This document shows, piece after piece, positions 952 through 32,800 of a stretch of 40,265 bases of DNA (positions are counted from its first letter, which is position 1; every line of letters starts with the position of its first letter). The position numbers and the translations under genes are program-made. Source of the stretch: Candidatus Pacearchaeota archaeon (GTDB lineage: Archaea; Nanobdellota; Nanobdellia; Pacearchaeales; DTIR01); NCBI GenBank assembly GCA_016211995.1, contig JACRHU010000078.1, forward strand, positions 1 to 40,265, given 5' to 3'. Below the pieces are notes generated by a model. It saw nothing but the letters and a program-made list of their open reading frames with translations. It made no database searches and had not been told where the DNA came from.

Positions 952-3900
952 TTATAACTTCAGGCTTACAATCTTACTGACTCCTTCTTGCATGCTTACA
1001 CCATAGAGTACTGGTGCTTCTTCTATTAAAGAGTCATTATGTGTTATTGCTATATACTGGGCATCTTTGATGTTCTGCTTTAAAATTGATGCCAATCTTC
1101 CTGAATTTCTCCTATCAAGAGCAGGATCAATCTCATCAAGTATATAGAAACAGTATGGCTTATATCTTTGGATTGCTAAAATAAGGGCAATAGCAACAAG
1201 TGTCTGCTCTCCTCCTGAAAGGCTTGCTGCATCAAAATATTTTCCTTTTGCAAGCTTGACAGCTATTTCCAAGCCACCAGCAAAAGGATCTTCTTGGTTC
1301 TCAAGCTCAAGGAATGCTTGCCCTTTTTCACAGAGGTGGGAGAAATTTTCTGTGAAAAAGGCATTAATAATATTAAGAGTTTTATTGAATGTAATTTTCT
1401 TTTTTCTGTCAATTTCTTCAATAATTTTTAAGATGTCTTCTTTTTCTTTTCTAAGTTGCTCTACTTTTAAGGCTACTTCATCGTATTCTTTTTTAACACC
1501 ATCATAAACTTCTAATGCACGCATATTCACATTTCCTAATCTTTCAAGTGTTTGTTCTGTCTTTTCAAGCTTTTCAACAAGTACTTGTCTCGAACCAGCT
1601 AACAATTCAAGATCCTTAAAATTTATGAAGTCTGCCTCAAGAGATTCATATTTAGCATTTATCTCTGCTTTCTGAATTCTTAGGTTATTTATTTTGTCCT
1701 CATTATTCCTGATCTCTACTTGTAACTCATAAATTTTCTTGTTTTTTTCATTGATTATATTTTGAACATCTGTCCTATCCTTAAAAGATTTCTGGAATCT
1801 TTCATACTGCTCTTTTTCTTTTTTCTCTTTTTCTATTAAATCAGCTTGTTTTTCTTCAAGAAGCACTTCAATATCATCGGTTTTTTGCCTTGCATCTTCG
1901 ATTTCTCTTTGATTTGTTTTTATAATATTTCTGAACTTTTCCAAATCTCTTTGCTTGAATGTGAGCTCTGTACCTATATTTGCTTCTTCTCTTCGCATTA
2001 ATTCCAAGACTTCTAGATTTAATGAATCATATCTGTCTTCAATTCCTTTGTATTCATCTATACTTTTTTCTAAATTTTTTGATTTCTTCTCTAGTTCTTC
2101 AATCTCTTTTTTTAATACTGCTTCTTCTTCATTTATCTTTACATTATGCTGTCTTTTTTCTTCTATGCTTTCAAGCTTAACAATATCAGAGTTAAGCTTG
2201 TCAAGTTTATCCTTTATTTCTTTAAATCCTTCTTTTAGCTCAGAAAGCTCTTTTTCATTTTTATGCCTCTTTCCTTCTTTAATTTTAAAATCAGAATTTA
2301 TTTCCTCAACTTCTGTTTCTATTTCATCAAGCACTTTGGAAGCATGCTCTTTTGTTATTTTTGTTCCACAAACAGGGCAAGTATCAAGTTTTTCAATATT
2401 GGATTTTATCTTGTTAAAGTTCTCTATTTTATTCTTATTCACTGCTATCTCTCTTTCTATTGTCGATATCTCGTTTTGTAGGGAATTTTCTTTTTCAGAT
2501 AGCGTTGATAATTTAGTTTTTAGCTCATGTTGTATTATTTGAGCTTTTTTAAGCTCGAATACAGACATATGCAAAGAAAGTTGATTGATTTGATTAAATG
2601 TAAATTCAGCATCATTCTTTATTTTCTGCAATGACTTCCTTTTATCACTAAGCCTGTCATTTAAAGAATTTAGCTCTGTCTTGAGCACATAAAACTTTTT
2701 TCTTTTTTCTTCGATTTCATCAAGTTGTTTCTTTTTTTCTCTTAGCTCTTTGTCAGAATAAGATTTTATGCCTTTTTTTCTTTCTTCGAGTGCTTTTTCT
2801 CCTTCAGTAATATTCTTTACAAGTTCTTCATTTCTTCTTTCTGCCTCTCTTATCTGGCTTTCAAAACTCTCTTTTCTTACTGTAAGTCCAGCAATAGTTG
2901 CTTTGAGCTCTGATATTTCTGAATTTAACAGTTCTTGCTCTTTTCCACCAGATTTTTGAATTCTTTGTGTAATTTCCTTTATTTTTTCTTCAAATTCTGT
3001 AATCTCTGCATTTATCGAATCAATTTTTACCCTTAATTTTCCAATATCTATATTAATATCCTCTATTTCTTTCTCCAGATTTTGCCTTGCCTTCTCCTTT
3101 TCATTCATGTCTTTTTTTAATACAGAAGCCTTGCATCTTTTGACAGTAAGCTCAAGATCTTTATACTTCAATGCTTGCGCTCTCTCAATATCAAGATTTT
3201 TCATGTATGCGAACCTTTCATGCAATATTGTATTAACTTCTGAAAGTTTCTGCTCTGTTTTTTCAAGTTCTCTTAAAGATTTTTCTTTCCTAACCTCATA
3301 AACACTGATCCCTGCAACATCCTCAAGTATCTTGCGTCTTTCTTCACCCCTCATTTCAACAAACCTTGCTATCTCTCCCTGCAAAATAATATTAAAACCA
3401 TAAGGATCTATATTCGCATGCGCAAGCATGTCTAACACTTCTTGCCTTGTTTTAGTTTCTTCATTTAGCTTATAAATGCTTAAACCATTTCTTCTGACAA
3501 TTCTTGAAATTGTCAGATCAGCTTGAGTAGGAAACATTTTATCAGAATTATCTAAGATTAAGTCAACACGAGCTTCAAATGCTGGCTTATTTTCCTTGCC
3601 ACCATTATAAATCAAATTAGCAGCTTTTGCAGCCCTTATACTCTTAATGCTTAACCTGCCTAAAACAAAGCATATTGCATCTGTTATATTGCTATTATGC
3701 ACAAAAATGTTATTTGCAATGAAATTATGGTCTTTCTCAACACACAAATCGTAAACCCATCCATCTCCTTGAACCTCTTCAATTTCAACTATCTCATCCC
3801 AGTAGATGTCAGATTCTACTAATAATTTAAGGGTATCAACCAATACAGACTTAGAATTAAACAAATTTTTTATAAGTAAATTTAAACCATTTCTTGAAGG

Positions 3901-5403
3901 GAGACATTGATTATAACAGTATGCATCAAATAAAGGAAATTGTTTTTTTATAAACTTCACACTTATTCCTTGGTCTTTTGCTATTTCTTTTACTAAACTG
4001 TTAACTTCTATCAAATCCAAATTCGGATTTGCCTTTTTATCCAGATTTTCTGTTATTTTCCTCTTTTTCTCTTTGTGCACTAGTTTTATATTTCTGAAAA
4101 ATGTTCGAAAGTTGTTCACACCATAAATTATTATGTTCTCATACTCTCCTCTAAAACCAGATTCTTTAATTCCTTTAACAACTTTTCTTTTTATGTATGT
4201 TATTCCAAGCCTTAAAAGACATACTTCTATGCATTTTGCTAATTTTTTACTCTTTGTTGTTATTTCTATACTTCTATCAGAGACGTAACCATCTCCGCAA
4301 TACAATCCGTTCAACAAAGCTGAAATTTCTTTATTATTCGAATGTTTTAAAATGATGTTAGATATGGCTTTATCTTCTGTTTTTGAGGCCATGCCTAATT
4401 TGGCTAAAATCTTCTTAAGCGGCTCTGAAAATATCAAAACATCCCAGCAGTTAGGTTTGTACTCTCTGATTATTGGTTCTTTATTAAACAATTTTCTGAC
4501 TAATTCAACATAATCTTCTATAATCTCTTCATCTCCATTCGTAAACCATATCTGGCTCGATTCTGCGAGCCTTCCCTCTGCAAGGAGATATCCGAAAAAT
4601 CTTGTAAATTCTTCTGAATTTTTAAAGGGAAAAGATGTTTCTTTTCCATTTGATATTACTCTATCAACAAAATTTAAAATTTCTATATCTGACAATTTTG
4701 CATTTCTCATTACCCTTATTAAATGTGCAAAATTTATTGATTGTTTATCTAGTAAGCCCTTTATAACATAATAAGAAACACCTATTTTCTCAGCCAGTTG
4801 TTTCCATGTTAAATTTTCTTTTAAAGAACTTAAAATTAACTTATATTCCTCTCTATAAGGAACATAAATCCTGTCATTTTCTTCAATTTTATCAAGTAAT
4901 TCTATAAAATATCTGTGTTCTGGCTCAAAACTAATTTTTCTTGGAATAGCGATTCTTATTCCTTGTTTAAGCTCATCAGCTCTTGCGGCTACAATCTGAT
5001 TTTCTTTCAGTATAAACAAAGGATGGTATTTTGTTGTTTTGATTTCTTTTCCACTCCGAGTTTTTATTCTTAACATTTTGTCTGTAAAGGCTCTTTTAAC
5101 AAATGCTTTGATTTGTTTCTTTTGCGTTTTTAATGTTTCAAAGTCTAAACATATCACCTCTGTACCATCTCCTTGAATAAGAAATCCGTCTTCTGTCTCT
5201 ACAGCTTTTTTTAAACGAGAGTTTACTATCTCTTCTATCCTCTCTATTGTTCCGTCTCCTAACTGAACTAAAGAATCTCCAGTTAAGCATTTACCGCTTC
5301 CATTTGGGCCAACAACTACATTTAAACCAGGATCAAACAATATTTCTGTCTCTTTTGCAAAGCTCTTGAAGCCATGCAAGACTATTTTTTTAATGAATGT
5401 CAT
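952..5403 (-). CDS. smc: SMC-family chromosome segregation ATPase, interrupted by an intein. The extein is 951 aa with a CxxC hook at the coiled-coil apex and no recognisable hinge.
   Basis: Head motifs are MTFIKKIVLHGFKSF...GPNGSGK | SNITDAICFVLG and NIILQGEIARFVEM. The C-terminal signature is LSGGEQTL with Walker B FYILDEID and GVSMQEGVSKIVSLKL. Long K/E-rich coiled coils lie between, and CPVCG is encoded at 2368-2379. Confidence 0.9.
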   Translation of the reverse strand: MTFIKKIVLHGFKSFAKETEILFDPGLNVVVGPNGSGKCLTGDSLVQLGDGTIERIEEIVNSRLKKAVETEDGFLIQGDGTEVICLDFETLKTQKKQIKAFVKRAFTDKMLRIKTRSGKEIKTTKYHPLFILKENQIVAARADELKQGIRIAIPRKISFEPEHRYFIELLDKIEENDRIYVPYREEYKLILSSLKENLTWKQLAEKIGVSYYVIKGLLDKQSINFAHLIRVMRNAKLSDIEILNFVDRVISNGKETSFPFKNSEEFTRFFGYLLAEGRLAESSQIWFTNGDEEIIEDYVELVRKLFNKEPIIREYKPNCWDVLIFSEPLKKILAKLGMASKTEDKAISNIILKHSNNKEISALLNGLYCGDGYVSDRSIEITTKSKKLAKCIEVCLLRLGITYIKRKVVKGIKESGFRGEYENIIIYGVNNFRTFFRNIKLVHKEKKRKITENLDKKANPNLDLIEVNSLVKEIAKDQGISVKFIKKQFPLFDAYCYNQCLPSRNGLNLLIKNLFNSKSVLVDTLKLLVESDIYWDEIVEIEEVQGDGWVYDLCVEKDHNFIANNIFVHNSNITDAICFVLGRLSIKSIRAAKAANLIYNGGKENKPAFEARVDLILDNSDKMFPTQADLTISRIVRRNGLSIYKLNEETKTRQEVLDMLAHANIDPYGFNIILQGEIARFVEMRGEERRKILEDVAGISVYEVRKEKSLRELEKTEQKLSEVNTILHERFAYMKNLDIERAQALKYKDLELTVKRCKASVLKKDMNEKEKARQNLEKEIEDINIDIGKLRVKIDSINAEITEFEEKIKEITQRIQKSGGKEQELLNSEISELKATIAGLTVRKESFESQIREAERRNEELVKNITEGEKALEERKKGIKSYSDKELREKKKQLDEIEEKRKKFYVLKTELNSLNDRLSDKRKSLQKIKNDAEFTFNQINQLSLHMSVFELKKAQIIQHELKTKLSTLSEKENSLQNEISTIEREIAVNKNKIENFNKIKSNIEKLDTCPVCGTKITKEHASKVLDEIETEVEEINSDFKIKEGKRHKNEKELSELKEGFKEIKDKLDKLNSDIVKLESIEEKRQHNVKINEEEAVLKKEIEELEKKSKNLEKSIDEYKGIEDRYDSLNLEVLELMRREEANIGTELTFKQRDLEKFRNIIKTNQREIEDARQKTDDIEVLLEEKQADLIEKEKKEKEQYERFQKSFKDRTDVQNIINEKNKKIYELQVEIRNNEDKINNLRIQKAEINAKYESLEADFINFKDLELLAGSRQVLVEKLEKTEQTLERLGNVNMRALEVYDGVKKEYDEVALKVEQLRKEKEDILKIIEEIDRKKKITFNKTLNIINAFFTENFSHLCEKGQAFLELENQEDPFAGGLEIAVKLAKGKYFDAASLSGGEQTLVAIALILAIQRYKPYCFYILDEIDPALDRRNSGRLASILKQNIKDAQYIAITHNDSLIEEAPVLYGVSMQEGVSKIVSLKL
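3694..5289 (-). mobile_element. Class-1 intein (532 aa) with LAGLIDADG homing-endonuclease domain, inserted in the SMC Walker A between GSGK and S
   Basis: The intein starts with Cys (CLTGDSLV; TGC = revcomp of 5287-5289). It has a TxxH block (TTKYH), LAGLIDADG motifs FFGYLLAEGRL and LLNGLYCGDGYV, and the terminal block VYDLCVEKDHNFIANNIFVHN followed by +1 Ser (AGC = revcomp of 3691-3693). Removing it restores the canonical GPNGSGKSNI P-loop. Confidence 0.9.
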
Positions 5404-5489: not shown

Positions 5490-6161
5490 TTAGAAGTCAA
5501 CTATGCTTTTCTGCTCTTTTTTTGCCTTTTCTGTCTTTAATGTCTGCCAAGTTTCCCTGAAAATGCCATCTTTTTTATGGTCTTTATAATGCTCTTTCAA
5601 AAATTTCTGAGTTATTGGGTCTGATGTATATCCTGAACCAAAATCAACTCCTAATTTTTTCTTTAAATCAGCAACCTCTTTTTCTCTTTGCACTTTAGCG
5701 AGAATAGAGGCAGCAGAGCATGCAACATGATTTACATCTGCTTTATGCTCTATAATAAAATTCAGATTATTTGTATTTTTAACAAATCCTACAAGATACA
5801 AATGCCATTTTGTAATATTATTTGATGGGCAATCAATGACAACATTTATTTTTTCATTTTTTTTATTGAGCTTGTTAATAATCTCAGCAGCCTTGATAGC
5901 CTCTATTTTGTTTAGATTCAAGCCTGCTGCTTGCCTCCCATCAATCTCATTAGGATGAACAACAAAAATTTCATATCCTACTGCAACCTTTCTTATCTCA
6001 GCAGCAAGAATTTCACGTCTTTTATCAGTAAGTTTCTTGGAATCTCTCACTCCCAGTCTTTTCAGTCTTTCTTCATCTTCTTTTTTAAGAAGCACACCTG
6101 CCATAATCATTGGACCAATTAATGGCCCTCTTCCTGAATCATCAATTCCTAGGACTAGCAT
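5490..6161 (-). CDS. rnhB: Ribonuclease HII
   Basis: N-terminal MLVLGIDDSGRGPLIGPMIMAGV (the RNase HII DEDD motif I context). Size is 223 aa, and the ADV..VACSAASILAKV motif is present. Confidence 0.9.
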   Translation of the reverse strand: MLVLGIDDSGRGPLIGPMIMAGVLLKKEDEERLKRLGVRDSKKLTDKRREILAAEIRKVAVGYEIFVVHPNEIDGRQAAGLNLNKIEAIKAAEIINKLNKKNEKINVVIDCPSNNITKWHLYLVGFVKNTNNLNFIIEHKADVNHVACSAASILAKVQREKEVADLKKKLGVDFGSGYTSDPITQKFLKEHYKDHKKDGIFRETWQTLKTEKAKKEQKSIVDF

Positions 6162-10222: not shown

Positions 10223-10319
10223 GCCCGGATGGCCCAATGGTAAGGCGCAGGTTTGCTATCTGAGTGTGTGAATAACCTGTTTCCGAAAGGATATCTGGGT
10301 TCAATTCCCAGTCCGGGCG
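10223..10319 (+). tRNA. tRNA-Ser (GCU) with a 15-nt canonical (37/38) intron
   Basis: Acceptor GCCCGGA/TCCGGGC. Anticodon stem CAGGT/ACCTG with loop TTGCTA|intron 10259-10273|A. Long variable arm TTTCCGAAAGGATAT. T-arm CTGGG-TTCAATT-CCCAG. Discriminator G. Confidence 0.85.
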
Positions 10320-13209: not shown

Positions 13210-15480
13210 TCAGCTGTATTTTACTAAGATGCTCCCTAATTTATCCTTTATAGATTTTATGCTGCTGACTTTGTAGTATATTACTGCAGGATTTTTTGCT
13301 GCTAATACCTTAACTTGCTGCCCAAGGCTACTGCTTGATGCAACTTCAACAAATACAAACGCTGTATCTTTCTTTGAAGCAATATTCTGTATTGAGCTGT
13401 ATATTCTGTTATCTCCTGCAACCTCTCCGTCTGTTATTAAAGTGTATATTGTTTTTCCTTGTTTCAAATCCTTTTCTATTTTTTTAAAAACATCGCTATT
13501 AAGATAGGTTCCCCCGCATTGAGGCGAAAGAGAAACATCTTTAACCCTGTGCCTTTTTGCGTCATAAATACTAACAAGATCATCCAATCCACTGTATCTT
13601 GTCATGTCTGAAAAATCTACAATACCAAATTTTGGATGTTTTCCTAATTTTTTTGCTGTATTTACAAGACCTTTCATTAAGCCGTATTTAACTCTGTTTA
13701 AGATATCAAATTTATTGCCTGTTCCAACAAAAAAACCTCCAGTCATTGTGCCAGAAGAGTCTTGTAATAACACCCAGTTATCAGGAATCTCTATTCCTGT
13801 AAGTTGCGAAGAATAAGATTTCAATGGAGTTTCTTTAAGCTCATAATCATTAAATCTCCAATATCCATTTCCTATATCAACAAGAACAGGCAACCCTGTT
13901 TTCTGTTGAAAATCCATTATCTTTTTAACATTTAACTTATTTATTTCAGTGGAAGTAAGATTCAAAGAGCTTCTTAACTTCCAAACTTTTTTTGTTCCTA
14001 GCTCAAATGAAATATTCTCTTCAGAAGGATTTTTTAATTCAATCAAATCAGCATTCTGCTTGTAATATTCATCAGTAGCTATACTAGCTATGCTATTCAA
14101 AACACGTTTAGAAGGCATTCCTGCGCCTTTTCCTCCTCCACCATAGCTATCATAATCATCATAATTAGTTCCTTGTTGGATTACATCTTCAAGTAAATCA
14201 TCTCTCTCTTTGTCTGGTAGTTCTTCAAGTAAATCATCCATTGTCTGGGACATGCTATCTCCTTCCATCTCCTCATCGCTTTTGCCTTTTCCAGCTCCTT
14301 GACCTTCATCTTCTTCTCCTTCTTCACTCTCTTCTCCTTCTTCTTCACCTTGTCCTCCAGCCTGGCCTTCTCCAGATTCTCCTGAACCTTGCCCTGAACC
14401 AGAGCCAAAACTTGATGTATTGCTGTCAAAACTTCCCTGCTTTTCTCTTACTGAAATGTACTTTGAAATTGCTTTTACAAAACCTTTTATAGAATCGTAT
14501 CTTGAAAGTTGAGAATCAAATACTCTTGTCAAGGAAGCAACAAAATATTTTTGTATTCCTTCATATTTTAAATTGGAAAAATCTGTGATATCTGAAATTT
14601 TTTTAAGATATTCTTTTCTGTCAATTCCAAGCATCTTTAAATGCTCGTCTTTAACATCTGAGATAAATCCAGAATACATTTCTTTTAGAACATCAAGAGC
14701 AGCTAAATTGCTTAATTTTTTGCTATTTAAATCATCTAAAAAAATCTGTGCTGCATTTTTTCTAGCCTCTTCTGAATTAAAAGACATTGTTGAATATAAA
14801 AGTCCGACTAATGAAATAGGAACATCTGTTGTCCTGTTTGCTGCAGAGTTCATATAAACAATTGGTAAAATCCCAGAAGGATAATGCATTACTGGCTGAG
14901 ATTCAATTTCTCTGCCATTATCCTGGAAAATAAAGCTTATCTTCTGTTCAAGTGTTTCATTATTATATCCAGAAGTTTTTGAAATAAATGCTATGTTTAA
15001 AATAGCATCCCAGCAAAGGTTCTTTATATTGTTTGCCTTAAACATTGCCTGTGCCTTTGACAAGCTAGGCTCTGCCTCTTTTATGCCGTCATACAATGTT
15101 TTTGTAATCTTTCTTTCATCAAATCTGCTGTTAGGACAAAACCATGGGTGCAATTGCTCATGAAAATGCACAAAAAGAAATGTGTCATAGATAATATTTT
15201 TCAGCAGTTCTGAGTCGGAAATTTTATTCTTAACCCTATAGAGCTTTTGGCTAGCTATTTTGTAAGCAGGAACTATGGTATCTTCAAAATTTTTTTTAAG
15301 TTTAGCTTCATTATTTATATTAATAAAAATTCTTTTATTGTCTGTATAAGCATCAAAATCTGTTTTTGATTTTGGATTAGAACCATAATTAATCTCTTTA
15401 TCAGAATCTAAAGGCGTTGCTAATCTAACTATCTCTCTCCATGTTTTTCCTGATTCTAGCACTATATCTTTGGCTTTCAT
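13210..15480 (-). CDS. HExxH putative metallopeptidase domain, acidic low-complexity linker and C-terminal vWA-like domain (DUF2201-type MoxR partner)
   Basis: FVHFHEQLH is encoded at 15148-15162. The linker runs GSGSGQGSGESGEGQAGGQGEEEGEESEEGEEDEGQGAGKG.... The vWA MIDAS-like motif is VLLQDSSGTMTG, followed by LITDGEV. The gene lies immediately downstream of an AAA_5 ATPase. Confidence 0.7.
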   Translation of the reverse strand: MKAKDIVLESGKTWREIVRLATPLDSDKEINYGSNPKSKTDFDAYTDNKRIFININNEAKLKKNFEDTIVPAYKIASQKLYRVKNKISDSELLKNIIYDTFLFVHFHEQLHPWFCPNSRFDERKITKTLYDGIKEAEPSLSKAQAMFKANNIKNLCWDAILNIAFISKTSGYNNETLEQKISFIFQDNGREIESQPVMHYPSGILPIVYMNSAANRTTDVPISLVGLLYSTMSFNSEEARKNAAQIFLDDLNSKKLSNLAALDVLKEMYSGFISDVKDEHLKMLGIDRKEYLKKISDITDFSNLKYEGIQKYFVASLTRVFDSQLSRYDSIKGFVKAISKYISVREKQGSFDSNTSSFGSGSGQGSGESGEGQAGGQGEEEGEESEEGEEDEGQGAGKGKSDEEMEGDSMSQTMDDLLEELPDKERDDLLEDVIQQGTNYDDYDSYGGGGKGAGMPSKRVLNSIASIATDEYYKQNADLIELKNPSEENISFELGTKKVWKLRSSLNLTSTEINKLNVKKIMDFQQKTGLPVLVDIGNGYWRFNDYELKETPLKSYSSQLTGIEIPDNWVLLQDSSGTMTGGFFVGTGNKFDILNRVKYGLMKGLVNTAKKLGKHPKFGIVDFSDMTRYSGLDDLVSIYDAKRHRVKDVSLSPQCGGTYLNSDVFKKIEKDLKQGKTIYTLITDGEVAGDNRIYSSIQNIASKKDTAFVFVEVASSSSLGQQVKVLAAKNPAVIYYKVSSIKSIKDKLGSILVKYS

Positions 15481-15491
15481 TTTCCATTCTT

Positions 15492-17333
15492 CTATGACCC
15501 TGAAACTCCTAAAGTTCTTTGAATCCTATGTTGATATATCTCTGGAAGAATCATTCCTTGCTCTCTCTGTTTTTTATAATAGAATTTTCCTAAATCATCT
15601 ATTACATCTGTTATTTTCGTTTTTTTATTATATCCTTTTAACATAGGGTTAATTTCTTCTTTATAGTCAGTCAAGAAACCGCATAAAGTCATTAAATCTG
15701 CCACATTTCTTGCTATGAGAACATTTCTTATCTCTTCAGAATTGCTTATTTTTGCTCTTAACAATTTTGCCTGCTCTGTTAGATTATCTACCAAAGTTTC
15801 TACCCCCCCAGATTCATGTATAGTATCTCTCAGGGATTTTTGTATTGCAGTCCTCTTTATTCCCTGATTTGGATCCATCATATCAAAATTAGTAGTAAAA
15901 AGTTTTGACTCCTGCATGTAATCCTGCAATAAGCTGACATACTGATTAAGAATTTGATTTATAGCATTTACAGGACTCTGTGATTCTGATTTTTGTTTGT
16001 TTCTTGCAAGCAATGCAGTAGCTCCTGCAACTTCTCTTATACTAACATATTTCTTCATATCAAGATATTCTTCAAGAGGATTTTTTGCCTTCAAGGAATC
16101 TTTAACATTTCTCAATGTTGCAAGAACATCAGCAAGCCTTTTAATCTGTACAATATCTCTGAATATCATAGGAACTTTGAACGAATAAGTTATTTCATGA
16201 ATTTTTTTTATATTATCAGTTTCATGCAAGCTTTCTGTTATAGTAATTCCTTTTTTAAGCTTTGATTCCCAATCACTGATTACATTCTTTTCATAGTTAA
16301 AATATTCAATTAAATTTCCGCTGAATGTAGCGATAAGAAGGTCAGAAAGTTCTAATGCAGAATAGAGTATCGGCTTATCTGTTCTTTTTGATTCTGTTAT
16401 CCAAGAATATGTTGAGAGCCAATCTCTTTCTAGATTTTCAAGAGTTTTTTCAGGAATGCCTAGATACTTTACAGTCCTTTCTGTGAATTTTTTCATAAAT
16501 TCTTCATGAGGCTTTTTTCCATCCTCTCCGAGCCATAGGACAGAGCCTGCGCTTGGAGCAGCATTGCCAACATATGTTTTTAGTAATCTATTATCAACAG
16601 CTGCATCTAACTGCAAGGTTTGTGTAAATTTTGAGTCATCTGTGTTTGCTGGGTTCTGCGCAGTAATTATAAGCAATTTCTTTAATCTACCGCTCTTTTC
16701 ATTGTATTTTCCATAATTTCCTGTAAATTCAGGAATAGGGATTCCAAATTTGTATATCTTACCTCCTAAATGCATTTCATTATCAAATAACTGCAGAGTT
16801 TCATTTGAATCTCCCCTATTAATCTCATCAACAATTACTGCTGCTGTTTTTTCAATAATATCTATCCTTGGATTTATAACCGGCATTCCATTCTCCATTT
16901 TTCCTTCCTGAAATGGTGAAAATAAATTATTCATAAAAGCATTTGCGCTGAGCCTGTATGCAAAGAAATTTTCTTTATTTAAGATTGCAGATACATATTT
17001 CATTGCAGTAAATGTTTTTCCTACACCTGTCTCTCCTTCTAAAAGAATAGGCATATCCCTTATATTAGAGCAAAAAATTTCATCTTCTAAGGAAATATCT
17101 AAAGCTTCTTTTTTAGGGACAAGGCTTTTTCCATAGGTTTCATCAAGAGAGATTACATGGTTGGTTTTATCATAACTGACTCGATATAATGGGGAAGGAA
17201 CTGTGTTTTTTCTCATTACATCATAGACAGAGCCTGCATATGAGAGAAGCATTGCTGCGTGCATCCTCTCCTCATTCTGCTCGGTTTTCCCTAGCTCACT
17301 TAATATTTTTTCTAATGTATATTTTTCATTCAT
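15492..17333 (-). CDS. MoxR/AAA_5-type AAA+ ATPase with long N- and C-terminal extensions
   Basis: Walker A is ILLEGETGVGKT, Walker B is AAVIVDEINRGD, sensor-1-like is IITAQNP, and LDAAVDNRL is present. The start is placed at ATG 17333 (MNEKY) because AGGAGTGG precedes it. The ORF track's longer start is at 17354. Confidence 0.8.
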   Translation of the reverse strand: MNEKYTLEKILSELGKTEQNEERMHAAMLLSYAGSVYDVMRKNTVPSPLYRVSYDKTNHVISLDETYGKSLVPKKEALDISLEDEIFCSNIRDMPILLEGETGVGKTFTAMKYVSAILNKENFFAYRLSANAFMNNLFSPFQEGKMENGMPVINPRIDIIEKTAAVIVDEINRGDSNETLQLFDNEMHLGGKIYKFGIPIPEFTGNYGKYNEKSGRLKKLLIITAQNPANTDDSKFTQTLQLDAAVDNRLLKTYVGNAAPSAGSVLWLGEDGKKPHEEFMKKFTERTVKYLGIPEKTLENLERDWLSTYSWITESKRTDKPILYSALELSDLLIATFSGNLIEYFNYEKNVISDWESKLKKGITITESLHETDNIKKIHEITYSFKVPMIFRDIVQIKRLADVLATLRNVKDSLKAKNPLEEYLDMKKYVSIREVAGATALLARNKQKSESQSPVNAINQILNQYVSLLQDYMQESKLFTTNFDMMDPNQGIKRTAIQKSLRDTIHESGGVETLVDNLTEQAKLLRAKISNSEEIRNVLIARNVADLMTLCGFLTDYKEEINPMLKGYNKKTKITDVIDDLGKFYYKKQREQGMILPEIYQHRIQRTLGVSGS

Positions 17334-18060
17334 TTTCCACTCCTGCTTTTGCAAGGGCAGTCATATATTGCTTAAGCTGATCGAGGGTTACAGTTTTCCT
17401 TAATTTATCAAGGCTGTATAATGAAGCATCAAGAAATTTCTTATTGTAAAGCATGCTCTCGACAGTCTCATCTGTAAGATTAAATCCTTCGAGAATACAA
17501 TCTGTAAAGACAAGTGCCTCTAAGTCTCTTCTGCTTTCTGCGCCTAAAAGAAATTCTTTTCTTTTCTTGCTTACAACATCAGAAATCATTTTGCCAACTG
17601 CTTCATAGTACAAGTCTGCTTCTTTTGCATTTTTCATGTCTGCCTTTCTTGATTTTTCATACACTGTTTTAAACTCATCAAATTTATTTTTATAATTAAC
17701 ATTCATTTGTTGTGAATACATTCCTGCTTCGAGCATTATTGCCTTAAGGTCAAAATAAGAAAGCCCTTCATCATCCTCTTCTTCATTTTCTTGCTCTTTC
17801 TCAACTTTCCTCAATGCCTTTGAAACTAAGATAAGATTATCGCAAATCTTATCTCCCTCAAGCATTAGATAGTAATCCATGAATAATATTCCTTTGTAAA
17901 AATCATCTCTCTTTATTCTAACTCCTTTTTTAATTGTGCTTTCAGCTACTAGCTTTTGTAAAAATGTATTGCTATGCAAACCAAAAGCTACCTTGAATTC
18001 CATATCATTCACATTAGGAAGATTTCTTATTAAAGTTCCTAGATATTTTTCTAGACTCAT
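17326..18060 (-). CDS. Hypothetical helical protein (244 aa), first gene after the internal gap of the cluster
   Basis: ATG preceded by AGGAGGAG. It overlaps the AAA+ start by 8 nt and has an acidic patch EKEQENEEEDDEG. No family recognised. Confidence 0.55.
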   Translation of the reverse strand: MSLEKYLGTLIRNLPNVNDMEFKVAFGLHSNTFLQKLVAESTIKKGVRIKRDDFYKGILFMDYYLMLEGDKICDNLILVSKALRKVEKEQENEEEDDEGLSYFDLKAIMLEAGMYSQQMNVNYKNKFDEFKTVYEKSRKADMKNAKEADLYYEAVGKMISDVVSKKRKEFLLGAESRRDLEALVFTDCILEGFNLTDETVESMLYNKKFLDASLYSLDKLRKTVTLDQLKQYMTALAKAGVENE

Positions 18061-31460: not shown

Positions 31461-31596
31461 AGCCTCAGGCCGGGATCGAACCGACGACCAATGCTTTTTT
31501 CTTATTTTTGCAACTCTTCTAGGAGAGTTGAGCCATAAGAGAACCTAGGTTCTCTTAGGTACGAAAGCATCGCTCTACCAACTGAGCTACTGAGGC
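31461..31596 (-). tRNA. tRNA-Thr (CGU) with a 63-nt intron at 37/38
   Basis: GCCTCAG-TA-GCTC-AGTTGGTA-GAGC-G-ATGCT-TTCGTA|intron 31497-31559|A-AGCAT-TGGTC-GTCGG-TTCGATC-CCGGC-CTGAGGC-T. The intron holds a 22-nt perfect palindrome (31536-31557) and a second hairpin CAACTCT/AGAGTTG. Confidence 0.85.
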
Positions 31597-31775: not shown

Positions 31776-31946
31776 ATGGTAAGCCACAGTATAAAGAGGG
31801 GCAACACTAAACTGACTTTGTCTATAGAGAAAAAAATCTTAGAGAATTTCAAAAAATTCTGTGACAAAGAAGGTTTGATAATTTCTAAACAAATAGAAAA
31901 ATTTATGAAACAGAAAGTTGAAAAATGGCGAAAGTTAAAGGATTAA
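31776..31946 (+). CDS. Small ribbon-helix-helix-like protein (56 aa), not in the ORF track
   Basis: MVSHSIKRGNTKLTLSIEKKILENFKKFCDKEGLIISKQIEKFMKQKVEKWRKLKD shows a beta-strand (KLTLSI) plus two-helix pattern typical of CopG/RHH. It overlaps the start of the LAGLIDADG gene. Confidence 0.45.
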   Translation: MVSHSIKRGNTKLTLSIEKKILENFKKFCDKEGLIISKQIEKFMKQKVEKWRKLKD

Positions 31947-32800
31947 AGAATATCCTAACAAAAGAAAAATTGAATGAACTATATATAGAAAGAAAATTGT
32001 CGATGGCTAAGATATCGAGATATTTGTGTGTAACCTACCAAACCATCATTTACTGGTTAAAAAAATTTAATATAGAAATAAGAGGTCCTAAAACCTATAA
32101 TAAGAAGCCTTTTTCTGGAGATATTTTGGAACGAGCTTATTTAATGGGTTTAAGTATAGGTGATTTTAATGTTAAAAAACATCATGCACAGATTTTAGTC
32201 AGAACCTCAACAACACATCCTGCTATGATAAGTTTATTTAACCAACTTTTTACAAAATATTCATTTGTTAAACAAATCAAATTAAAGAGCATGCCTTCTT
32301 GGTATTTGTATACTATCTTAGATAGTTCATTTGATTTTTTAATGGAAAAGGGTATCAATCTGGAAAATTTTAAAAAGGAAGAATTTTATGCGTTTTTGTC
32401 TGGCTATGTAGATGCCGAAGGGTGTTTATGCATAACAAACAACAAAGAGACTTTTAGGTATCATTTTTCTTTAGCATCTGAAGATATTAATATTCTGAAT
32501 GGCATAAAAGAATACTTATCTAAATTAGGGCATAAGGTTTCTTTTAGGATTTCTGCTAAAAGGGGAAATCTTACCACTAATGGAAAGGTTTACAACAAAG
32601 ACTATTGGGAGCTTAGATTGTATTCTAAAAAGGAAGTTTTAAATTTGATTGGAAAATTACAATTGCAACATTATGAGAAGATTAGATGGAAGGAACTTAT
32701 GTTTGAATTAAATAATTGTCGAAAATGGGTAGATGTTAAAGAGATAGTCTTTAGATTGAGGAAAGATATTGATAATGAGGTAGAAAAATGCATATTTTAA
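31925..32800 (+). mobile_element. Free-standing double-motif LAGLIDADG homing endonuclease with an N-terminal HTH
   Basis: HTH-like LSMAKISRYLCVTYQTIIYWLKKFNI. LAGLIDADG motifs are AYLMGLSIGDFNV and YAFLSGYVDAEGCL. The stop overlaps the mpg start by 13 nt. Confidence 0.85.

Follow-up and report, generated by a model that had tools for sequence, protein, structure and literature searches.

An intein-containing smc gene in a Pacearchaeota contig

The window analysed here is a 40,265-nucleotide (nt) contig of Candidatus Pacearchaeota archaeon (JACRHU010000078.1). On its reverse strand, an unbroken open reading frame (ORF) of 1483 codons plus stop encodes an SMC protein that carries a CPVC motif at the tip of its coiled coil, where an SMC hinge would be expected. 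The hinge is treated as a defining SMC feature, with proposed roles in DNA binding, as an entry gate and in communication with the heads. The window's copy goes under the name 'AAA family ATPase [Candidatus Pacearchaeota archaeon]' (P0001). The features of the gene are collected in Table 1, with those of other window genes.

The coding sequence is interrupted within the P-loop by an insert of 532 amino acids (aa). Its splicing signals read CLTGD...VHN/S (the slash marks the junction), with Cys 1, a C-terminal His-Asn and a +1 Ser nucleophile on the C-extein, and the precomputed Pfam assignments of P0001 include PF14890 (Intein_splicing) and PF14528 (LAGLIDADG_3). The insert is a class 1 intein with a homing endonuclease. 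Inteins occupy the same P-loop site in P0060, P0121, P0128, P0158-P0187, L039, L048 and L064. The junction GxGK/C...HN/S is common to hook-type and hinge-type SMC proteins of DPANN, the small-celled archaea (about half of the long sequences are readable at both junctions), which suggests, from sequence, a long-lived homing allele in smc.

Once the intein is taken out, the protein measures 951 aa, and residue numbers below refer to this spliced extein. A full-length AlphaFold2 model, computed as a monomer from 92 homologues (mean predicted local distance difference test score (pLDDT) 80), shows strands and helices across residues 1-165, followed by helices 167-205, 216-343, 353-411 and 419-473 in the N-terminal arm and 486-584, 589-605, 614-728, 740-757 and 768-825 in the C-terminal arm. 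Over the 659 residues of the arm region (167-825), glutamate makes up 17% and lysine 16%, and the sole proline is P478 of the CPVC motif. The CPVCG sequence spans residues 477-481 (window 2365-2379), next to the arithmetic midpoint of the protein at 475.5. A first-pass annotation, made from the letters of the window, had derived the same spliced length; the motifs it quoted are all present where it placed them, the arms are K/E-rich as it described, and the CxxC that it put near residue 477, at about window 2350-2400, is this CPVCG.

Table 1. Features of the smc gene and of other genes in the 40,265-nt window (residues numbered on the spliced protein; slashes mark splice junctions)
Feature	Window position	Strand	Basis
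smc gene, intein-containing precursor, complete	952..5403	-	single ORF; 100% identical to P0001
N-extein, residues 1-38, Walker A GPNGSGK at end	5290..5403	-	sequence boundaries
532-aa intein in P-loop (GK/C...VHN/S) with LAGLIDADG homing-endonuclease domain	3694..5289	-	junction motifs, Pfam
Rest of N-terminal SMC head half, extein 39-166, R-loop SIRAAK, Q-loop ILQGEI	3310..3693	-	Pfam SMC_N on 3-136; PDB 5xei; AlphaFold2
N-terminal coiled-coil arm, extein 167-473	2389..3309	-	AlphaFold2 helices, BLAST
Apical loop (predicted hook), extein 474-485; CPVC 477-480 = window 2368-2379	2353..2388	-	AlphaFold2, conservation, Pfam
C-terminal coiled-coil arm, extein 486-825	1333..2352	-	AlphaFold2 helices, BLAST
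C-terminal SMC head half, extein 826-951: LSGGEQ signature, Walker B FYILDEID, D-loop, H-loop ITHND	955..1332	-	Pfam, PDB match, conservation
RNase HII gene, directly upstream of smc	5490..6161	-	Pfam RNase_HII 5.7e-43
tRNA gene, 97 nt	10223..10319	+	Rfam
tRNA gene, 136 nt	31461..31596	-	Rfam
ORF, 291 aa, LAGLIDADG homing-endonuclease domain	31925..32800	+	
ORF, 756 aa, no Pfam family	13210..15480	-	
ORF, 620 aa, no Pfam family; weak AAA_5 match	15492..17354	-	

SMC-type heads and arms

The spliced protein matches Pfam SMC_N at 8e-55. Among NCBIfam models, SMC_prok_A scores highest at 533.7 bits, below its equivalog cut-off of 729.4, and aligns residues 3-473 with profile positions 1-470 with no change in length; SMC_prok_B scores 509 bits, also below its cut-off of 567. 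The best Rad50 model reaches 125 bits (cut-off 700), and the model of the archaeal SMC-superfamily ASRP proteins (NF045487) reaches 126.6 bits (cut-off 300), with its best stretch in the coiled coil at residues 296-658. By sequence search of the PDB, Pyrococcus Smc head constructs came out on top, at 2e-97 (5xei) and 6e-88. The Smc heads as a whole fell between 1e-60 and 2e-97, while Rad50 heads did no better than 1e-13. Foldseek superposes the modelled head on 4i99, the Smc head of P. furiosus, with a template modelling (TM) score of 0.92-0.93. Over 310 aligned head columns, median identity is 65% within the protein's own class, compared with 47% to hinge-bearing SMC proteins and 28% to P. 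furiosus Rad50.

All of the ATPase motifs are present and invariant in the family: Walker A, Q-loop, signature, Walker B, D-loop and H-loop. In the N-extein, the invariant residues are F12, K13, S14, F15, G32, N34, G35, G37 and K38. The D-loop of the window protein reads DEIDPALD, with proline at residue 895 (about window 1123-1125), where at least 90% of the family have DEIDAALD.

The arms, too, follow the SMC pattern. By BLAST, residues 1-470 align with residues 1-485 of P0147, a Woesearchaeota hinge SMC, at 41% identity, and the hinge of P0147 begins near 491; residues 480-951 align with residues 662-1155 of P0152, another Woesearchaeota hinge SMC, whose hinge finishes near 679. Since the alignments run up to the hinge borders on both sides, some 10-20 residues appear to have taken the place of about 190 hinge residues, and the arms are otherwise collinear. 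In the AlphaFold2 model the arms are antiparallel, with about 300 residues per strand, and collinear with those of hinge SMC proteins. The coiled coil breaks at residues 344-352 and 606-613, each about 130 residues from the apical loop, and in the model these breaks are placed as an elbow-like discontinuity would be. Heads and arms are thus SMC, not Rad50, as the first-pass annotation had held for the heads.

The apex of the coiled coil

We found no match to the SMC hinge (PF06470) in the spliced protein by Pfam, even at E=1. The same model gives E~1e-33 for the nearest hinge-bearing relatives, P0146 and P0147 (identity 37-41%), so the missing match is not a problem of sensitivity. What occupies the apex instead is detected by Pfam Rad50_zn_hook (PF04423), at 28.9 bits (gathering score 24.3), over residues 459-503 (window 2299-2433). 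When the central 137 residues were searched against the PDB, the best matches were the P. furiosus Rad50 hooks 1L8D (6e-5) and 6ZFF, with CPVCGtkiTkEH of the window protein paired to CPVCGRELTDEH of the Rad50 hook. A profile built from 37 diverse family members retrieved these two structures at 7e-8 and 1.4e-7, the next match lying at 0.008. Among NCBIfam models, the central 111 aa scored best with Rad50_Sulf (39.7 bits, E=1.4e-10), the match falling where that profile has its hook, followed by ASRP, another Rad50 model, SbcC and arcadin-4, all of them hook proteins; SMC models gave scores at noise level only.

Because full-length Foldseek searches were dominated by the heads and uninformative on the apex, a separate AlphaFold2 model of residues 425-535 was built (pLDDT 94.4). 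It comprises a helical hairpin with a 12-residue loop bearing the CPVC motif; at the turn between helices 419-473 and 486-584, nothing but this loop (residues 474-485) is non-helical. Against the PDB, Rad50 hooks were again the best structural matches: 1L8D with a TM score of 0.77-0.83 and a root mean square deviation of 2.7 Å, then 7ZQY, 5GOX and 6ZFF. Sequence and predicted fold support the assignment of the apex as a Rad50-type zinc hook, and the earlier proposals of a missing hinge and a hook in its place are both borne out by these searches.

The motif is conserved well beyond the window. The 120 best homologues, most of them named 'chromosome segregation SMC family protein [Candidatus Pacearchaeota archaeon]', share 44-66% identity with the window protein and are about 950 aa long; a CPxC lies at the midpoint of 120/120, far in excess of chance, and a precomputed hinge in 0/120. 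In an alignment of 92 sequences over the same identity range, C477, P478 and C480 never vary, while D475, K483 and H488 are at least 90% conserved. The 269 relatives collected split into 151 with the hook, 96 with a hinge by a local hinge hidden Markov model (HMM), 22 with neither (several being fragments or having weak HMM scores under the threshold set here) and 0 with both. The CPxC is at the midpoint in 151/151 of the hook class, in which the local HMM found 0 hinges. In an exhaustive search of cluster representatives the list splits cleanly, with hook proteins of ~950 aa first and then hinge proteins of 1100-1200 aa that have no CxxC. The expectation of the first-pass annotation that the CxxC would be kept in orthologues, at the predicted apex, thus holds for the hook class.

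In the Rad50 hook structures 1L8D and 6ZFF, one zinc is shared by two chains via four cysteines. By analogy, the apex of the window protein would bind zinc and would use it to join two chains. A single-chain arrangement is the alternative here: the CPxC could cap the hairpin within one chain, either through a redox disulfide or as a zinc knuckle in which C477, C480 and H488 are joined by an acidic residue, leaving dimerisation to the heads, a kleisin or the arms. The conservation of H488 and D475 beside the two cysteines is compatible with such a cap, AlphaFold2 confidently models the monomer hairpin without a partner, and certain 'mini' orthologues described below have no apical module at all, which suggests that a junction at the tip can be dispensed with. 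The signature CP[VL]C...T.EH, however, is close to that of the P. furiosus Rad50 hook, whose zinc is shared by two chains in 1L8D, and the profile and fold searches matched intermolecular hooks only. We regard a single-chain cap as unlikely.

Orthology, partners and variety of the apex

In a neighbour-joining tree of head domains with P. furiosus Rad50 as outgroup, the hook proteins and four of the 'mini' forms make up one clade (bootstrap 91/100, and 85/100 in a larger data set). The clade nests inside archaeal SMC, with hinge-bearing SMC proteins as its sister group; two members of that group, or proteins of the same 90% clusters, are named 'chromosome segregation protein SMC [Candidatus Woesearchaeota archaeon]'. 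Gene order agrees. The neighbourhoods of smc at 19 hook and 21 hinge loci, 742 ORFs in all, were clustered, and four kinds of neighbour recur and no others: RNase HII, an Ig-like/membrane protein of about 410 aa, a Toprim protein and an AP endonuclease. An RNase HII gene is found close to smc at 15/19 hook loci and at 8/21 Nanoarchaeota hinge-SMC loci, and the ~410-aa protein is common to both kinds of locus. By tree and by gene order, the window gene is an orthologue of canonical smc. It is also the only SMC visible in the window, a statement of the first-pass annotation that holds for these 40 kb only. Among the best 80 loci of a contig profile scan, no assembly had both a hook and a hinge SMC, which is weak evidence.

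The same data bear on whether the protein might be a Rad50 or ASRP (ClsN/Sph) family member misannotated as SMC. Like those families it lacks a hinge and bears a zinc hook, and it scores 127 bits with the ASRP model and 125 bits with Rad50. Both scores are far under the cut-offs of 300 and 700 and far under the 534 bits obtained with SMC; head identity is 28% to P. furiosus Rad50 against 47% to hinge SMC proteins, the gene occupies the SMC syntenic slot, and its heads group with archaeal SMC, not with Rad50, which was the outcome that the first-pass annotation had anticipated for a head phylogeny. Membership of Rad50 or ASRP is already contradicted by these observations, and we give it next to no weight.

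We therefore favour, at a probability of roughly 80%, the reading that the window protein is a Pacearchaeota orthologue of condensin-type SMC in which the ~190-residue hinge has been replaced by a ~12-residue Rad50-type zinc hook on canonical arms. Protein splicing would remove the P-loop intein and restore Walker A, and the chain would fold back into an antiparallel coiled coil of ~300 residues per strand with the CPVC in the turn. One Zn2+, held by C477 and C480 of each chain, would then permanently join two chains at their tips, a constitutive junction in place of hinge dimerisation. The SMC heads would come together and part with ATP, as they do in Smc-ScpAB, possibly with a kleisin partner, and would thereby organise the chromosome.

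Several known systems help to place this architecture. Compared with canonical Smc of Smc-ScpAB (TIGR02169/TIGR02168) and with the Woesearchaeota hinge SMC proteins, the window protein is alike in head motifs, ~300-residue arms, breaks and the position of RNase HII (identity 37-41%); it differs in having a ~12-aa CPxC loop instead of the ~190-aa PF06470 hinge and in being about 200 aa shorter. Rad50/SbcC (PF04423; 1L8D, 6ZFF, 5GOX) shares the apical CxxC and T..EH (profile E~1e-7, TM about 0.8), whereas the window protein has SMC heads and arms and no mre11 partner in view. The ASRP proteins (ClsN, or coalescin, of Sulfolobus and Sph1/Sph2) are archaeal chromosome organisers of the SMC superfamily with a zinc hook for a hinge (PMC9389158); they are ~600 aa long with divergent heads of their own, unlike the bona fide SMC heads of the window protein (127 bits against a cut-off of 300). 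The 'hinge-less' SMC variants of marine Actinobacteria likewise have no hinge, but the CXXC hook motif, present in the window type, is stated to be absent from them (Sussfeld et al. 2025, PMC12153180).

The closest counterpart is artificial. In B. subtilis Smc(Zh), the P. furiosus Rad50 hook was put in place of the hinge, and the strain grew normally, with an arm alignment close to normal (Burmann et al. 2017, PMC5344682). Its design, SMC heads and arms joined by a Rad50 hook, is identical to that of the window type, which is natural and occurs in at least 151 sequence clusters. The growth of the chimera indicates that a hook on an SMC can work. In the converse direction, the MukB hinge can stand in for the hook of fission-yeast Rad50, so that hook and hinge are interchangeable in Rad50 (PMC6969161). 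Given these two results, and since natural arm length and breaks are kept, the proposed mechanism is plausible; with an engineered precedent it is mechanistically unsurprising. Full-text searches of the literature, which covered papers outside subscription, turned up no report of a naturally occurring SMC that carries a zinc hook. Published SMC surveys have been seeded on hinge alignments, and together with the equivalog cut-offs this would leave hook SMC proteins missed or under-annotated, as with the window's own copy, the 'AAA family ATPase'.

A Pfam scan of the window (30 ORFs of 120 aa or more and three small ORFs of 72-90 aa downstream of smc) revealed no ScpA, ScpB or other kleisin or kite protein and no Rad50; no Mre11-type metallophosphoesterase occurs among the window ORFs or the immediate smc neighbours. 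A phmmer search of the flanks with P. furiosus Rad50 heads for a second ABC ATPase of Rad50 type returned transporter-like matches only. No kleisin was among the recurrent neighbours at the 40 clustered loci, and DPANN ScpA HMMs, seeded from Aenigmatarchaeota and one Woesearchaeota-type locus, had no match in the hook loci or the window. In Aenigmatarchaeota, ScpA (PF02616) is encoded directly downstream of a short-armed hinge SMC of ~830 aa (L056 6281-6985, L067 12502-13224 and L077 12609-13292), and at L055 (- strand) it shares a contig with a hinge SMC of Woesearchaeota type. Nor is ScpA a neighbour of smc in most Woesearchaeota hinge loci, so its absence from the hook flanks says little. 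Among the best 120 matches of a database search with the Woesearchaeota-type ScpA, the named ones are Woesearchaeota or Nanoarchaeota and none is labelled Pacearchaeota; labels of metagenome-assembled genomes (MAGs) at NCBI are inconsistent, with hook loci under both Pacearchaeota and Woesearchaeota, and the search cannot decide on ScpA in hook genomes for that reason.

These observations invite a different reading, in which the protein is no kleisin-closed condensin but has shifted to a Rad50-like or ClsN-like role, bridging DNA ends or separate complexes hook to hook and perhaps making up for the loss of Rad50/Mre11. No kleisin gene was seen close to any of the hook loci, while in other DPANN lineages ScpA sits beside smc; the labels of the ScpA relatives just given point the same way, and the apex matches the Rad50 and ASRP models with about equal scores. 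The heads, joint-like breaks and arm length are nevertheless all canonical SMC, no mre11-like phosphoesterase is found in the window, and ScpA does not adjoin smc in most Woesearchaeota hinge loci either. A shift of role strikes us as quite improbable.

Some points do weigh against the condensin-type hook SMC that we favour. Zinc binding and dimerisation are inferred, the structure models being monomers. No ScpA, ScpB or other kleisin was found in the window or within 10 kb on either side of the 19 hook loci, unlike the Aenigmatarchaeota loci, where ScpA adjoins smc, and L055, where it shares the contig. The protein falls under the NCBIfam SMC equivalog cut-off (534 < 729 bits), and its D-loop carries a proline at a position that is alanine in at least 90% of the family. 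Lastly, some orthologues have no apical module of any kind.

These orthologues are the 'mini' SMC proteins of Pacearchaeota, ~780-805 aa in length (P0136, P0137/P0287, P0140 and P0142; locus L084 6279-8693). Four representatives are 45-47% identical to the window protein and cluster with the hook proteins in the tree; hinge and CxxC are both absent from them, and their arms are short of ~150 residues at the apex. P0287 resides in an RNase HII ... AP-endonuclease neighbourhood, as hook smc does, and therefore looks like a positional orthologue without an apical dimerisation module. Apical dimerisation may accordingly not be strictly required in the Pacearchaeota lineage.

A CPVC apex was also observed outside Pacearchaeota. 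The SMC of Candidatus Iainarchaeum at L033 8231-12928 (JAGVWE010000005.1) has no hinge and carries an intein at the same P-loop site; its Rad50_zn_hook match (E=3e-4) is under the Pfam gathering score. Its heads group with hinge SMC proteins of Micrarchaeota and Aenigmatarchaeota, and with the Pacearchaeota hook clade in 0/100 bootstraps. This separate position suggests an independent swap, which is the probable origin of the Iainarchaeum hook; alternatively, the apex may have been acquired by lateral transfer. On the sequences at hand, the change from hinge to hook appears to have arisen at least twice.

Spirochaete SMC proteins of ~930-1040 aa (Sphaerochaeta, Treponema, Brachyspira and others; L040, L042-L047, L050, L051, L057, L059, L060, L062 and L070) have no local hinge HMM match and no CxxC. 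The three scanned with Pfam SMC_hinge (L040, L046 and L051) were negative, and a planctomycete control (L078) scored with the same model. The spirochaete and mini Pacearchaeota proteins resemble the hinge-less actinobacterial SMC proteins (PMC12153180).

We lean, with some reserve, towards a broader view of these variants as repeated hinge replacement: the sole condensin-type SMC of Pacearchaeota would dimerise by its hook, Iainarchaeota would have made the swap independently, and some Pacearchaeota would have lost the apex altogether. If so, the hinge fold, including its DNA-binding and proposed gate functions, would be dispensable for SMC function in freely evolving organisms, and the natural series hinge, hook, nothing would offer a ready means of testing how well models of DNA entrapment and of loop extrusion hold. 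A natural, repeated domain swap bears on what the hinge is for. For the hook proteins themselves, evolution made a swap previously known only from engineering and kept it across a large lineage of tiny archaea. That SMC arm length and breaks were kept despite the swap supports arm-centred models of SMC action. The proteins could also serve structural and single-molecule work as natural SMC proteins with a small, zinc-dependent and chemically switchable apex for a hinge. Whether a kleisin is still in use in DPANN archaea with very small genomes is a further question that they raise.

Elsewhere in the window, two adjacent ORFs belong to no Pfam family. Rfam detects two tRNA genes, neither of which is found by ARAGORN. 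Their lengths of 97 and 136 nt suggest archaeal tRNA introns, which both genes probably contain. A LAGLIDADG ORF adjoins a methylpurine-DNA glycosylase gene close to the long tRNA gene, and may encode a free-standing or intron-derived endonuclease.

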